Below are positions 1 to 40,547 of a DNA stretch of 64,000 bases, piece after piece. The notes below the pieces were generated by a model, which made no database searches, had not been told where the DNA came from, and worked only from the letters and a program-made list of their open reading frames with translations. The stretch is from Escherichia coli (lineage in GTDB: Bacteria > Pseudomonadota > Gammaproteobacteria > Enterobacterales > Enterobacteriaceae), in assembly GCF_045037415.1 (NCBI RefSeq), contig NZ_CP173438.1, one strand, 5' to 3'. The position numbers and the translations under genes were made by a program. Each line of letters opens with the position of its first letter. The stretch's first letter is position 1.

Positions 1-274
1 CTGCGCGCAGGCTTGCCCCGAATCGCTATTTTCTCCGCGCCACACCAGGGCCTGGGATTTGCAGTTCACCATTGGGGACGCGTGCCTGGCGTATCAGTCA
101 GTTGAATGCCGCCGCTGTCAGGATAGCTGTGAGCCAATGGCAATTATCTTTCGCCCGACGCTCTCCGGGATCTACCAGCCGCAACTTAATAGCCAACTTT
201 GCAACGGATGTGGAGCATGTGCAGCCAGCTGTCCGGTATCAGCCATAACTGCGGAGTATCTCCATGCACACTAA
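1..274 (+). CDS. napF: Ferredoxin-type protein NapF, C-terminal part (5' end lies outside window)
   Basis: Frame continuous from window edge: ...ESLFSPRHTRAWDLQFTIGDACLAYQSVECRRCQDSCEP...CNGCGACAASCPVSAITAEYLHAH, with 4Fe-4S cysteine clusters; directly upstream of napD-napA. Confidence 0.9.
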   Translation, partial: CAQACPESLFSPRHTRAWDLQFTIGDACLAYQSVECRRCQDSCEPMAIIFRPTLSGIYQPQLNSQLCNGCGACAASCPVSAITAEYLHAH

Positions 275-527
275 CTGGCAAGTTTGCAGCCTGGTCGTGC
301 AGGCCAAAAGCGAACGAATTTCAGACATCAGCACCCAACTGAACGCCTTTACCGGCTGTGAAGTTGCTGTCAGCGACGCGCCGAGCGGTCAGTTGATTGT
401 GGTGGTGGAAGCAGAAGACAGCGAAACGCTGATCCAAACCATTGAGTCAGTACGCAACGTAGAGGGCGTGCTGGCGGTGTCGCTGGTTTATCACCAGCAG
501 GAAGAGCAAGGTGAGGAAACACCATGA
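264..527 (+). CDS. napD: NapD, chaperone for NapA Tat signal peptide
   Basis: 87-aa ORF MHTNWQVCSLVVQAK...; position between napF and napA; stop overlaps napA start (ATGA). Confidence 0.95.
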   Translation: MHTNWQVCSLVVQAKSERISDISTQLNAFTGCEVAVSDAPSGQLIVVVEAEDSETLIQTIESVRNVEGVLAVSLVYHQQEEQGEETP

Positions 528-3011
528 AACTCAGTCGTCGTAGCTTTATGAAAGCTAACGCCGTTGCGGCCGCTGCGGCGGCTGCCGGTTCTCAGCGTGC
601 CGGGCGTTGCCCGCGCCGTTGTTGGTCAGCAGGAAGCCATTAAATGGGATAAAGCGCCGTGCCGTTTCTGCGGTACGGGTTGCGGCGTTCTGGTCGGAAC
701 GCAGCAGGGGCGTGTGGTGGCTTGTCAGGGCGACCCGGACGCACCGGTTAACCGTGGCCTGAACTGCATTAAGGGCTATTTCCTGCCCAAAATCATGTAC
801 GGTAAAGACCGTTTGACGCAGCCGCTGCTGCGTATGAAAAACGGTAAATATGATAAAGAAGGCGAATTTACCCCAATCACCTGGGATCAGGCCTTCGATG
901 TGATGGAAGAGAAATTCAAAACCGCCCTGAAAGAAAAAGGGCCGGAATCGATCGGTATGTTCGGTTCTGGTCAGTGGACTATCTGGGAAGGTTATGCCGC
1001 GTCCAAGCTGTTTAAAGCGGGCTTCCGTTCGAACAACATCGACCCGAACGCGCGTCACTGTATGGCGTCGGCAGTAGTTGGCTTTATGCGTACCTTTGGT
1101 ATGGATGAGCCGATGGGCTGCTATGACGACATCGAGCAGGCTGACGCGTTTGTGCTGTGGGGCGCAAACATGGCGGAGATGCACCCGATCCTCTGGTCGC
1201 GCATCACTAACCGTCGTCTCTCTAACCAGAACGTTACCGTGGCGGTGCTTTCTACCTACCAGCATCGTAGCTTCGAGCTGGCGGATAACGGCATCATCTT
1301 TACGCCGCAATCTGACCTGGTGATCCTGAACTATATCGCCAACTATATCATTCAAAACAATGCGATAAATCAGGACTTCTTCAGCAAACACGTTAACCTG
1401 CGCAAAGGGGCGACGGACATCGGCTACGGTTTACGTCCGACCCATCCGCTGGAAAAAGCAGCGAAGAATCCGGGTTCTGACGCCTCCGAACCGATGAGCT
1501 TTGAAGATTACAAAGCCTTCGTTGCTGAATATACGCTGGAAAAAACCGCCGAAATGACCGGCGTGCCGAAAGACCAGTTAGAACAACTGGCGCAGCTGTA
1601 TGCCGATCCGAACAAGAAAGTCATCTCCTACTGGACGATGGGCTTCAACCAGCATACCCGTGGTGTGTGGGCCAACAACCTGGTCTACAACCTGCACCTG
1701 CTGACCGGCAAAATTTCCCAGCCGGGTTGCGGTCCGTTCTCCCTGACCGGGCAGCCTTCCGCGTGTGGTACTGCGCGTGAAGTGGGCACCTTTGCTCACC
1801 GTCTGCCTGCGGACATGGTGGTGACTAACGAGAAACATCGTGATATTTGCGAGAAGAAGTGGAATATCCCGAGTGGCACCATTCCGGCGAAAATCGGTCT
1901 GCACGCGGTGGCACAAGACCGTGCGCTGAAAGACGGCAAACTGAATGTTTACTGGACCATGTGTACCAATAACATGCAGGCCGGACCGAACATTAATGAA
2001 GAGCGTATGCCGGGCTGGCGCGATCCGCGCAACTTTATCATCGTTTCCGATCCATATCCGACGGTCAGTGCGCTGGCAGCGGACTTGATCCTGCCGACCG
2101 CAATGTGGGTAGAGAAAGAGGGGGCTTACGGTAATGCCGAACGCCGTACTCAGTTCTGGCGTCAGCAGGTACAGGCACCGGGTGAAGCAAAATCGGATCT
2201 CTGGCAGTTAGTTCAGTTCTCCCGTCGCTTCAAAACTGAAGAAGTGTGGCCGGAAGAGCTGCTGGCTAAGAAACCGGAACTGCGTGGCAAAACGCTGTAT
2301 GAGGTTCTGTATGCCACTCCGGAAGTGAGCAAATTCCCGGTATCCGAACTGGCGGAAGATCAGCTGAACGACGAATCTCGCGAGCTGGGCTTCTATCTGC
2401 AAAAAGGGTTGTTCGAAGAGTACGCATGGTTTGGTCGCGGTCACGGTCACGATCTCGCGCCGTTCGATGATTACCACAAAGCACGCGGTCTGCGCTGGCC
2501 GGTGGTGAACGGTAAAGAAACGCAGTGGCGTTACAGCGAAGGTAACGACCCGTACGTGAAAGCGGGCGAAGGCTACAAGTTCTACGGTAAACCGGATGGC
2601 AAAGCGGTGATCTTCGCGCTGCCGTTCGAACCTGCGGCGGAAGCGCCGGATGAAGAGTACGACCTGTGGCTCTCTACCGGACGCGTCCTGGAGCACTGGC
2701 ATACCGGCAGTATGACTCGCCGTGTACCGGAACTGCACCGCGCCTTCCCGGAAGCGGTTCTGTTTATTCACCCGCTGGATGCGAAAGCGCGCGATCTGCG
2801 CCGTGGCGACAAAGTGAAAGTGGTTTCTCGCCGTGGCGAAGTGATCTCGATTGTCGAAACGCGCGGTCGTAACCGTCCGCCGCAGGGCCTGGTGTACATG
2901 CCGTTCTTCGACGCCGCACAGCTGGTTAACAAACTGACGCTGGATGCGACCGATCCGCTCTCGAAAGAGACGGACTTCAAGAAGTGCGCGGTCAAACTGG
3001 AGAAGGTGTAA
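524..3011 (+). CDS. napA: Periplasmic nitrate reductase catalytic subunit NapA, disrupted by an apparent +1 frameshift at about 589-590 (pseudogene or sequence error)
   Basis: ATG at 524 encodes Tat leader [22 protein letters not shown], then frame stops at 641-643; the rest of NapA ([32 protein letters not shown]... to ...[10 protein letters not shown]) is in the +1 frame as the 815-aa ORF 564..3011. Confidence 0.9.
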
Positions 3012-23966: not shown

Positions 23967-24992
23967 CTACACCGCCTTATTAGGATCAAATGCGTCGCGG
24001 ACGGCTTCACCAATAAAGATCAGCAAAGACAACAATATCGCCACCGATAAGAAGGCGGTGATCCCAAGCCACGGGGCCTGAAGGTTATTTTTCCCTTGTA
24101 ACAGGAGTTCGCCGAGTGACGGTGAACCGAGCGGCAGACCGAAGCCGAGGAAATCGAGTGAGGTCAGGGTGGTTATCGAACTACATAAAATAAACGGTAA
24201 AAAAGTGAGGGTAGCGACCATGGCATTTGGCAACATATGACGCAGGATGATACTGCGATCGCTGACGCCAAGCGCCTGCGCCGCGCGGATGTAGTCGAAA
24301 TTACGGGTACGTAAAAACTCCGCCCGCACCACGCCGACCAGACTCATCCAGCCAAACAAGACAGTAATTGCCAGCAGCCACCAGAAGTTAGGCTGTACGA
24401 CGCTGGAAAGTAAAATAATCAAAAACAGCGTCGGCATCCCCGACCATACTTCAATAAAACGTTGCCCCCAGAGATCGACTTTACCACCGTAATAGCCTTG
24501 TAGCGCCCCCGCCAGCACACCCATCACGCTGGAGCAGAGGGTCAGCATCAGGCCAAACAGAACTGAGATCCGCGTGCCATAGAGAATGCGCGCCAGCACA
24601 TCGCCGCCATTGGCATCCGTTCCCAGCCAGTTTTGCCGGGAGGGTGGAGAAGGGAAGGGCTTATCGGTAGCAAAGTTGATACTGGTAGCACCAAAGCGAA
24701 TCGGTGCCCACAGTACCCAGCCGTTATTTTCCAGTCGTTGTTTCAGCCACGGGTCCTGATAATCAGCCTGACTTGCCAGCGGGCCGCCAAAATCGCTTTC
24801 GCTGTAGTTTTTCAACAACGGGAAATACCAACTGCCGTCATAACGCACCAGCAACGGTTTATCGTTGGCGATAAGTTCAGAACACAAACTCAAACCAAAC
24901 AAGAGGAGGAAAATCCATAACGACCAGTAGCCGCGACGGTTATGGCGAAAACGCGCCCAACGGGCCTGATTGACGGGGCTGAGTCGCGACAT
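23967..24992 (-). CDS. yejE: Peptide ABC transporter permease YejE
   Basis: 341-aa membrane [31 protein letters not shown]... Confidence 0.93.
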   Translation of the reverse strand: MSRLSPVNQARWARFRHNRRGYWSLWIFLLLFGLSLCSELIANDKPLLVRYDGSWYFPLLKNYSESDFGGPLASQADYQDPWLKQRLENNGWVLWAPIRFGATSINFATDKPFPSPPSRQNWLGTDANGGDVLARILYGTRISVLFGLMLTLCSSVMGVLAGALQGYYGGKVDLWGQRFIEVWSGMPTLFLIILLSSVVQPNFWWLLAITVLFGWMSLVGVVRAEFLRTRNFDYIRAAQALGVSDRSIILRHMLPNAMVATLTFLPFILCSSITTLTSLDFLGFGLPLGSPSLGELLLQGKNNLQAPWLGITAFLSVAILLSLLIFIGEAVRDAFDPNKAV

Positions 24993-26087
24993 TAACGTCC
25001 CTCAAAGTCTATACGCGGATCGACCAGCGTATAGCTGATATCACTGACAATATTCAGCAGCAGGCCAATCAGGGTGAAAATATACAAGGTACCAAACATT
25101 ACAGGATAATCGCGCGAGACGGTCGCTTCGTAGCCCAGTAAGCCAAGACCATTGAGTGAAAACATCACCTCAATCAGCAGCGAGCCGGTAAAAAACATGC
25201 TGATAAACGTCGCCGGAAAACCGGCAATCACCAGCAGCATGGCGTTGCGGAACACATGTTTCCAGAGAATATTTTTTTCACTTACCCCTTTCGCACGTGC
25301 CGTCACCACGTATTGCTTACGCACTTCATCAAGGAATGAGTTTTTTGTCAGCATGGTCAGAGCCGCAAAGCCGCCAATCACTGTCGCCAGCACCGGCAGC
25401 GTGATATGCCACAGATAATCGGTGATTTTCTGATACCACGGCAGCGAATCAAAGTTAGCGGAAACCAGGCCGCGCAGAGGGAACAGATCGAAATAGCTGC
25501 CGCCCGCGAAGAAGACAATCAGCAGGATGGCAAACAAAAAGGCCGGAATGGCGTAGCCGATGATGATAAATGCACTACTCCAGACGTCAAAACGGCTCCC
25601 ATTATAAACAGCTTTGCGAATGCCTAACGGAATCGACACCAGATAGATAATCAGCGTGCTCCACAATCCGAGGGTGATGGAGAACCGGCAGACTGTCTTT
25701 AATCAGCGTCAGCACCGAGGCGCTGCGAAAAAGGCTGTCGCCAAAATCAAAACGGATGTAGTCCCAGAGCATTTTGAAGTAACGTTCGTGGATCGGCTTA
25801 TCGAAACCGTAGCGATGAGTGATCTCGGCGATCACTTCTGGATCTAATCCGCGTCCGCCACGGTAATTACTGTCGCTGATATTGCCGACGCCCGTTTGCG
25901 CATGGCTGGCGCGAACACCTTCACCGCCTGCGCCGGGTAATACTCCGGCATTGCCAAACTCAATGGCGGCGATGGCCTGGTCGACCGGACCGCCAGGCGC
26001 AATTTGCACGATGAAAAAGTTGATAGTGATAATCGCCCATAGCGTTGGGATCACCAGCAACAGACGGCGGATCAGATAAGCGCCCAT
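24992..26087 (-). CDS. yejB: Peptide ABC transporter permease YejB, disrupted by an apparent +1 frameshift near 25683-25684 (pseudogene or sequence error)
   Basis: N-terminal part [28 protein letters not shown]...LIKDSLPV in ORF 25602..26087, C-terminal part ...[17 protein letters not shown]...DPRIDFEGR in ORF 24992..25666; the frames differ by one extra T. Confidence 0.9.
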
Positions 26088-38855: not shown

Positions 38856-40547
38856 ATGAAAACGCTGCTGATTATTGACGCTAATCTCGGTCAGGCACGC
38901 GCCTATATGGCGAAGACCCTGCTGGGCGCGGCGGCGCGAAAAGCAAAACTGGAAATCATCGACAATCCGAACGACGCAGAAATGGCGATTGTTCTCGGTG
39001 ATTTCATCCCGAATGACAGCGCGCTGAACGGTAAAAATGTCTGGCTGGGCGATATTTCCCGGGCAGTTGCGCACCCTGAGCTGTTCCTGAGTGAAGCCAA
39101 AGGCCATGCGAAACCTTACACTGCGCCGGTCGCTGCGACAGCACCGGTTGCTGCTAGCGGTCCGAAACGCGTAGTTGCGGTGACTGCTTGCCCGACTGGT
39201 GTAGCACACACCTTTATGGCGGCTGAAGCCATTGAAACCGAAGCGAAAAAACGTGGCTGGTGGGTGAAAGTTGAAACCCGTGGTTCTGTTGGCGCGGGTA
39301 ATGCAATCACACCTGAAGAAGTCGCAGCAGCGGATCTGGTGATTGTGGCGGCAGATATCGAAGTGGATCTGGCGAAATTTGCTGGTAAACCGATGTATCG
39401 CACCTCTACCGGTCTGGCGCTGAAGAAAACTGCGCAGGAACTGGATAAAGCGGTTGCTGAAGCAACGCCGTATGAACCAGCGGGCAAAGCTCAAACAGCG
39501 ACCACTGAAGGTAAGAAAGAGAGTGCAGGCGCTTACCGTCACTTGCTGACGGGCGTCTCTTACATGCTGCCGATGGTTGTTGCAGGTGGTCTGTGTATCG
39601 CGCTTTCTTTTGCTTTTGGTATCGAAGCGTTTAAAGAGCCGGGTACGTTGGCAGCGGCGCTGATGCAGATTGGTGGTGGTTCAGCCTTTGCGCTGATGGT
39701 GCCGGTACTGGCAGGTTATATTGCCTTCTCCATTGCCGATCGTCCGGGTCTCACGCCGGGTCTGATTGGCGGTATGCTGGCGGTTAGCACCGGTTCTGGC
39801 TTCATTGGCGGTATTATTGCGGGCTTCCTGGCGGGTTACATTGCGAAGTTAATCAGTACGCAACTGAAACTGCCACAGAGTATGGAGGCACTGAAACCGA
39901 TCCTGATCATTCCGCTAATTTCCAGTCTGGTGGTCGGTCTGGCGATGATCTACCTAATCGGTAAACCGGTTGCTGGCATTCTCGATGGGTTGACTCACTG
40001 GCTGCAGACCATGGGGACTGCGAATGCGGTTCTGCTGGGGGCGATCCTCGGTGGCATGATGTGTACTGACATGGGCGGTCCGGTAAACAAAGCAGCGTAC
40101 GCATTCGGTGTGGGTCTGCTGAGTACTCAAACCTATGGCCCGATGGCGGCGATTATGGCGGCAGGTATGGTGCCACCGCTGGCAATGGGTCTGGCAACAA
40201 TGGTGGCGCGTCGTAAATTCGATAAAGCGCAGCAGGAAGGTGGCAAAGCCGCTCTGGTACTTGGTCTGTGCTTTATTTCGGAAGGTGCAATTCCGTTTGC
40301 TGCTCGTGATCCGATGCGTGTGCTACCGTGCTGTATCGTTGGTGGGGCGCTGACTGGCGCAATCTCAATGGCGATTGGTGCGAAACTGATGGCTCCGCAC
40401 GGTGGTCTGTTTGTTCTGCTGATCCCTGGCGCTATTACGCCGGTATTGGGTTACCTGGTAGCAATTATTGCCGGTACGCTGGTGGCGGGTTTGGCCTATG
40501 CCTTCCTCAAACGCCCGGAAACACAAATAGTAGAAAAAAACGCATAA
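38856..40547 (+). CDS. fruA: Fructose PTS EIIB'BC component FruA
   Basis: 563-aa ORF; duplicated IIB domains (one with CPTGVAHT) and polytopic IIC domain. Confidence 0.95.
   Translation: MKTLLIIDANLGQARAYMAKTLLGAAARKAKLEIIDNPNDAEMAIVLGDFIPNDSALNGKNVWLGDISRAVAHPELFLSEAKGHAKPYTAPVAATAPVAASGPKRVVAVTACPTGVAHTFMAAEAIETEAKKRGWWVKVETRGSVGAGNAITPEEVAAADLVIVAADIEVDLAKFAGKPMYRTSTGLALKKTAQELDKAVAEATPYEPAGKAQTATTEGKKESAGAYRHLLTGVSYMLPMVVAGGLCIALSFAFGIEAFKEPGTLAAALMQIGGGSAFALMVPVLAGYIAFSIADRPGLTPGLIGGMLAVSTGSGFIGGIIAGFLAGYIAKLISTQLKLPQSMEALKPILIIPLISSLVVGLAMIYLIGKPVAGILDGLTHWLQTMGTANAVLLGAILGGMMCTDMGGPVNKAAYAFGVGLLSTQTYGPMAAIMAAGMVPPLAMGLATMVARRKFDKAQQEGGKAALVLGLCFISEGAIPFAARDPMRVLPCCIVGGALTGAISMAIGAKLMAPHGGLFVLLIPGAITPVLGYLVAIIAGTLVAGLAYAFLKRPETQIVEKNA

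Follow-up and report, generated by a model that had tools for sequence, protein, structure and literature searches.

The extra T in napA of this Escherichia coli chromosome is almost certainly a systematic base-calling or consensus error at a methylated GGTCTC site rather than a mutation. It lies in the window, the 64,000-nucleotide stretch of DNA analyzed here, where the gene order napFDAGHBC-ccmA-H-narP ... mgl-preA is that of an E. coli ST131-type chromosome segment. Judged from the sequence, the real gene most likely reads GGTCTC at this point and encodes a normal, Tat-exported NapA of 828 amino acids. The direct support is that the discrepancies are restricted to one motif, that methyltransferase genes are present, that the calls are inconsistent within a single clone and that the same call recurs across lineages.

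As assembled, napA spans positions 524-3011 on the + strand. Alignment of napF-napH with the wild-type ST131 strain SK1144 gave a single internal difference, an extra T at 589/590, and the apparent frameshift falls 65 bases into the gene. The twin-arginine leader of NapA reads in frame from the ATG at 524 up to AAAAAAAG and is followed by 17 altered residues. The extra base thereby produces an apparent leader ORF of 39 codons (524-643, + strand; stop codon at 641-643) and an apparent ORF in the +1 frame (564-3011, + strand) that holds the remainder of NapA without interruption; the TTG at 564 is only a mechanical ORF start. An earlier note on this DNA had described the same two frames, in agreement with the sequence, and had placed the lesion at 589-590, exactly where the SK1144 alignment puts it. 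Deletion of one T in silico restores the Tat leader and yields an 828-residue translation identical to SK1144 NapA (WP_000778067.1). The upstream gene napD, which encodes the NapA signal-peptide chaperone, is intact at 264-527 (+ strand) according to the annotation of an identical sequence. RefSeq (PGAP) labels the same allele 'napA, frameshifted' in strains ECKH-100, Esc10 and 98212. ECKH-100 also has a hipA 'frameshift', which lies away from any Eco31I-like site and is unrelated.

The leader ORF and the +1-frame ORF overlap at 564-640, which leaves room for programmed +1 ribosomal frameshifting of the prfB type that would rejoin the frames and allow full-length NapA to be made. The probability of this explanation is close to nil. 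In the inspected stretch 552-640, no shift-prone codon with a stop or hungry codon after it lies near the insertion, no Shine-Dalgarno-like stimulator precedes that point, and the sole in-frame stop is 50 nt downstream of it. A shift at any point away from the insertion would scramble the h and c regions of the signal peptide. The arrangement also lacks conservation, since 5,403 of the 5,420 genomes that hold the napA locus are missing the extra T. Initiation at TTG 564 was considered as well, because it would supply a substitute 18-residue leader that contains an RR pair and an AxA site. This TTG has no evident Shine-Dalgarno sequence ahead of it, and the proposal is moot once the insertion is recognized as spurious.

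The 39-residue product of the frameshifted leader was found on 15 public contigs, compared with at least 1000 for intact NapA, and megabase contigs accounted for 15 of the 29 index blocks with the 39-residue product, which indicates long-read assemblies. An exact look-up of the 815-residue product started at TTG returned no match because gene callers pick a GTG start, which gives 804 residues; the 804-residue product is not specific to the napA +T lesion.

The extra base converts an Eco31I site, GGTCTC, to GGTTCTC (587-593, + strand), and it disturbs the predicted target of M2.Eco31I, the cytosine in GGT(m5C)TC; the neighboring T is the base opposite the m6A. The window was aligned over 49,900 bases with the ST131 strain 4/1-1, whose genome is free of these anomalies. 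There are three differences in total, at napA 589, yejM 14697 and yejB 25683, and all three are at position 4 of a GGTCTC/GAGACC motif, the first C of GGTCTC or the complementary G. They take the form C>T or C>TC and affect three of the five copies of the motif in this stretch. The chance of three differences all landing on motif position 4 is about (5/49,900)^3, or roughly 1e-12. None of the three (positions 1-50,000) lies in napD, napGHBC or ccmA-H, and the statement in the earlier note that these genes are intact stands.

The yejM site at 14695-14700 (− strand) reads GAAACC in place of GAGACC, a C>T change on the motif strand that is synonymous. The yejB site at 25680-25686 (− strand) reads GAGAACC in place of GAGACC, the complement of the GGTTCTC in napA, and the predicted YejB departs from the normal protein at residue 136 and terminates at 161. 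This second apparent frameshift of the same type, missed in the first reading of the DNA, is taken from its sequence to be of the same origin as the napA +T. The napA and yejB sites, the two insertion-type sites of the window, share the flank CTGCCGGTCTC, and this fits a context-dependent effect of the base caller. Eco31I sites at 19632-19637 (context ATGGTCTCG), 39747-39752 and 61259-61264, all on the + strand, are read correctly as GGTCTC in the window; the position homologous to the second of these is GGTTTC in strain 98212.

The enzymes that modify this motif are known from ST131. Strain EC958 has a type IIS Eco31I restriction-modification system whose methyltransferases M1.EcoMI and M2.EcoMI are 100% identical to M1.Eco31I and M2.Eco31I; M2 is predicted to produce GGT(m5C)TC, M1 produces GAG(m6A)CC on the opposite strand, and 100% of the GAGACC sites in EC958 are adenine-methylated (Forde et al. 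2015, mBio, PMC4659465). The EC958 Eco31I locus was found in 634 of 5,426 genomes, including 4/1-1, Nissle 1917 and ATCC 25922. The locus lies outside the window, and the check for cognate methyltransferases covered Esc20 and ECKH-100. Esc20 and the window have the same sequence over positions 1-50,000, and a single base distinguishes them in the final 14 kb. The Esc20 genome has genes for all three Eco31I proteins, the endonuclease and the two methyltransferases (WP_001295727.1, WP_001295726.1 and WP_000781649.1), with accessions that match those of EC958. ECKH-100 encodes both methyltransferases under the same protein accessions as EC958 and has an ISEc23 element in the expected place of the endonuclease gene. 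The ST131 Eco31I system is the presumed cause of the napA artefact and is distinct from the feature itself.

The same restriction to the motif holds elsewhere in the chromosome. Comparison of Esc20 with EC958 over two other regions totaling 56.3 kb gave two differences, both at the motif-position-4 cytosine. One is a C>T that creates a transporter with a brand-new protein accession, and the other is a C deletion that gives the type I gene hsdM an apparent 'frameshift'. The discrepancies are therefore confined to a single methyltransferase motif in both comparisons, 3/3 for the window against 4/1-1 and 2/2 for Esc20 against EC958, and the forms seen at the predicted m5C or its complementary G are C>T, C>TC and C deletion.

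Near-identical genomes give different readings of these sites. Esc4, from the same project, matches the window at all but two positions over 25 kb. Its napA site is GGTTTC, which is neither wild type nor +T, stays in frame and encodes NapA L23F; its yejM site is GAGAACC, which gives a 'frameshifted' yejM. Among the Esc genomes, most of which are about 5,156,5xx bp, the napA site is GGTTCTC in 15 and GGTTTC in 11. Esc16 (+T) and Esc11 and Esc26 (both GGTTTC) have common assembly coordinates. The alignment of Esc16 with Esc11 contains two internal differences, both at motif sites, plus a single mismatch at its edge. The insertion in yejB was present in 19 genomes, which come from the same set of recent projects and form a different subset from the napA +T carriers. 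All four combinations of napA (+T or C>T) with yejB (+A or not) occur in the Esc clone, and the two states fail the four-gamete test in otherwise identical genomes. The Eco31I-site signature appears in varying combinations of sites in Esc16, Esc11, Esc4, ECKH-100, 439 and 447. Strain 447 has GGTTTC at napA, and its clone-mates 439 and 446 are in neither the +T nor the GGTTTC list; strain 439 was confirmed as wild type at napA. A site that toggles between two non-wild-type readings within one clone is unlike an inherited mutation.

The distribution of the extra T was determined with a 41-mer spanning the insertion, which was searched against 5,426 complete genomes. It was detected in 17: 15 'Esc' genomes, ECKH-100 (Taiwan) and 98212 (Egypt), all of which belong to a recent accession series. 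Around napA, strain 98212 and the window disagree at 103 of 4,610 positions (2.2%), a divergence that indicates a separate origin for its +T, and four of its five homologous Eco31I sites are altered. Transfer of the +T into 98212 on a short recombination tract was considered and rejected; flanking SNPs at 434 and 677 would limit the tract to <243 bp, and the presence of the +T in three further genetic backgrounds, one of which is an evidently noisy long-read metagenome contig, also disfavors it. The identical +T, at a position that is not a repeat, thus occurs in at least five unrelated backgrounds. Other run assemblies have different single-base insertions in the same napA hexamer (GGTGCTC, GGTCTTC and GGTCTCC). 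The GGTTTC allele at napA was found in 57 genomes, including ST73 strains, Esc genomes, strain 447 and strain 98215, which comes from the same project as 98212. Four older records were examined at the locus, and the +T is absent from the Eco31I-carrying strains 4/1-1, Nissle 1917 and ATCC 25922 and from ST131 strain SK1144.

A genuine recent +1 insertion could have inactivated napA in an ST131 sub-clone, with the leader alone being made and mature NapA neither translated nor exported. The allele is found in 16 near-identical genomes from two submitters, with the PGAP 'frameshifted' label, and the rest of the nap operon is intact, as would be expected of a very recent lesion. This explanation is nevertheless very unlikely. 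Clone-mates read GGTTTC, and the napA state is independent of the yejB and yejM sites, which points to non-clonal inheritance. The recurrence in unrelated backgrounds, the placement of every other difference from the reference genomes at the same motif position, and the small number of contigs with the frameshift product beside those with intact NapA also argue against it. From the intact state of the neighboring genes, the earlier note had proposed a recent lesion or an artifact in preference to long-term decay; the evidence favors the artifact and speaks against the recent lesion. Its further proposal that NapA cannot be made with its Tat leader is unsupported as a property of the organism, with the extra base on the Eco31I-methylated cytosine. 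Nor does the separation of leader from enzyme hold up, as the +T swaps with C>T among members of one clone, turns up again in unrelated lineages and is part of a motif-specific pattern that covers every difference between the window and the ST131 reference.

The Eco31I-modified sites could instead be truly hypermutable through deamination of m5C and local slippage, with napA, yejB, yejM and hsdM switching in the manner of contingency loci. C>T change at m5C is a real and established mutational mechanism. All the changes fall on the methylated cytosine, and the Eco31I-carrying ST73 strains are fixed for GGTTTC at napA in assemblies made over many years by many laboratories. However, insertions of T, G or C and deletions of C are not products of deamination. 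The rates required are implausible, with three of five sites changed in 50 kb compared with zero changes elsewhere and with states that differ in nearly every clone-mate, and the +T is absent from the four older assemblies, all of which are counted as Eco31I-carrying in this argument. Hypermutability is accordingly regarded as extremely improbable. A related idea, which is given a very slim chance, is that the adjacent m5C and m6A make GGTCTC a reversible hypermutable switch and create methylation-dependent contingency loci in ST131. If true, such a switch would constitute a new class of phase variation that operates without a repeat tract.

The preferred explanation is an error at the methylated site, and its steps may be as follows. 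The Eco31I methyltransferases would modify adjacent positions, the first C of GGTCTC as m5C and the complementary strand as m6A. In long reads of native DNA, presumably from Oxford Nanopore, the doubly modified dinucleotide would give an ambiguous signal at the level of the read. The consensus at the cytosine may then become T (C>T), TC (+1 insertion) or nothing (deletion), and the form of the error would be set by the flanking context and by chance between runs. At napA the consensus would have come out as TC, mimicking a +1 frameshift. Three things lead us to infer the nanopore platform: the pattern of the errors, the recency of the accession series and published work. Some observations count against the artefact. 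The +T is reproducible, occurring in 15 Esc assemblies and in ECKH-100, which comes from another submitter in another country, and several short-contig assemblies of SRA runs also have it. If any of these short-contig +T runs consists of Illumina data, the allele would be real in that isolate.

The extra T would have no biological consequence, and periplasmic nitrate reductase is most likely normal in this strain. The consequence is for the databases. Deposited 'complete' genomes of ST131, a major lineage of pathogens, and of other Eco31I-carrying E. coli (634/5,426) can hold motif-specific false substitutions and frameshifts, which then enter the annotation as pseudogenes (napA, yejB, yejM and hsdM) or as proteins with new accessions. 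The result can be an inflated number of pseudogenes, false SNP and indel differences when outbreaks are traced, and misleading inferences about metabolism. As a warning for curation, changes at position 4 of GGTCTC/GAGACC in Eco31I-carrying genomes should be masked or re-polished.

Two known situations produce superficially similar alleles. Genuine recent frameshift pseudogenes resemble the napA case: the lesion is a single-base indel, the rest of the operon is intact and the label is 'frameshifted'. A genuine pseudogene is coherent within a clone and independent of methylation motifs; the napA +T is neither, as the indel is not inherited coherently in the Esc clone. The ST73 NapA L23F allele of Nissle 1917 and ATCC 25922 has the same C>T at the same nucleotide in strains that also have Eco31I. 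In ST73 the GGTTTC is fixed, in frame and present in many independent assemblies over many years, and is most likely genuine, unlike the Esc clone and strain 447, where GGTTTC alternates with +T or wild type among near-identical genomes.

The closest parallel is with sequencing errors. Methylation-induced C/T and A/G ambiguity has been described in ONT Kit 14 assemblies at motifs that include the GGTY/RACC type (Lohde et al. 2024, Genome Res, PMC11610573), and nanopore sequencing of E. coli ATCC 25922 can detect the m5C of GGTCTC (PMC12679398). No report of consensus errors specifically at GGTCTC was found in the literature searched, where the motif is mentioned only in papers on methylation detection. 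The errors described by Lohde et al. (PMC11610573) are like the napA case in that they involve strain-specific motifs and pyrimidine/purine confusion at or beside the modified base, and they also vary among assemblies of one outbreak strain. They are substitutions or ambiguous positions, and no E. coli motif is named; the napA case differs in involving the Eco31I motif GGTCTC, in including one-base insertions and deletions, and in generating false pseudogenes in deposited 'complete' genomes. The napA +T belongs to this known class of artefact, and the analysis links it to one particular motif and enzyme.

A second apparent frameshift of the napA type lies in yejB (minus strand, window approximately 24992-26087), where GAGAACC replaces the GAGACC of an Eco31I site at 25680-25686. 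The frameshifted YejB departs from the normal sequence at residue 136 and reaches a stop at 161. The same GAGAACC call is found in 19 complete genomes, every one from recent projects. A third Eco31I site, in yejM (minus strand, window 14695-14700), reads GAAACC for GAGACC, a synonymous change. The yejM gene is essential, and in the near-identical clone genome Esc4 this same site reads GAGAACC and the gene is annotated as frameshifted.

The pattern extends to Esc20 loci outside the window (fetched loci L028 3628-5246 and L029 4597-5601). One GGTCTC lacks its C, which gives a type I hsdM its frameshift annotation, and a C>T change at another GGTCTC accounts for the novel accession of a transporter, WP_404998493.1. 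These two positions are the sole differences between Esc20 and the reference ST131 genome EC958 in the 56 kb compared. The napA hexamer itself is read in several ways. The assemblies of ERR10497948, ERR10499437, SRR30949441 and SRR12298856 (L024-L027) carry differing 1-base insertions within it (GGTGCTC, GGTCTCC and GGTCTTC), and a 39-aa leader ORF results from each.

Discrepancies were also found away from Eco31I sites. Strains 439 and 447, clone-mates of each other, have extra single-base indels annotated as frameshifts, in napG of strain 439 (L012, around 3660) and in ccmF of strain 447 (L011, around 8876). Neither is at an Eco31I site; one of the pair is a C gained ahead of AGGTCACC and the other is a G lost from a G4 run. 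These indels indicate that the 439 and 447 assemblies carry general indel noise. The base at 55956 is T in the window (GGGTACC) and C in Esc20 (GGGCACC). Over 50,001-64,000 the window sequence is shared exactly by at least 33 other records, and the Esc20 C may be another miscall. The truncated and frameshifted yejO-type autotransporter pseudogene at window 12921-13843 seems to be a real pseudogene of this lineage, because an identical copy is present in the reference ST131 genome 4/1-1 and yejO is full-length in the divergent strain 98212.

In ECKH-100, a further genome with the napA +T, an ISEc23 (IS66-family) element occupies the place of the Eco31I endonuclease gene of EC958 and Esc20 (L017 25584-30992), and the segment adjoining the element is inverted. 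Both Eco31I methyltransferases of this strain may therefore be orphaned. Nissle 1917, ATCC 25922 and other ST73 genomes, strains in which Eco31I is present, have a fixed GGTTTC at the napA site that encodes NapA L23F (codon 23, equivalent to window 590-592). It may reflect true deamination of m5C or the loss of a restriction site. The ST73 GGTTTC recurs across many independent assemblies, so that the reading GGTTTC most likely reflects a true base in one lineage and an artefact in another.
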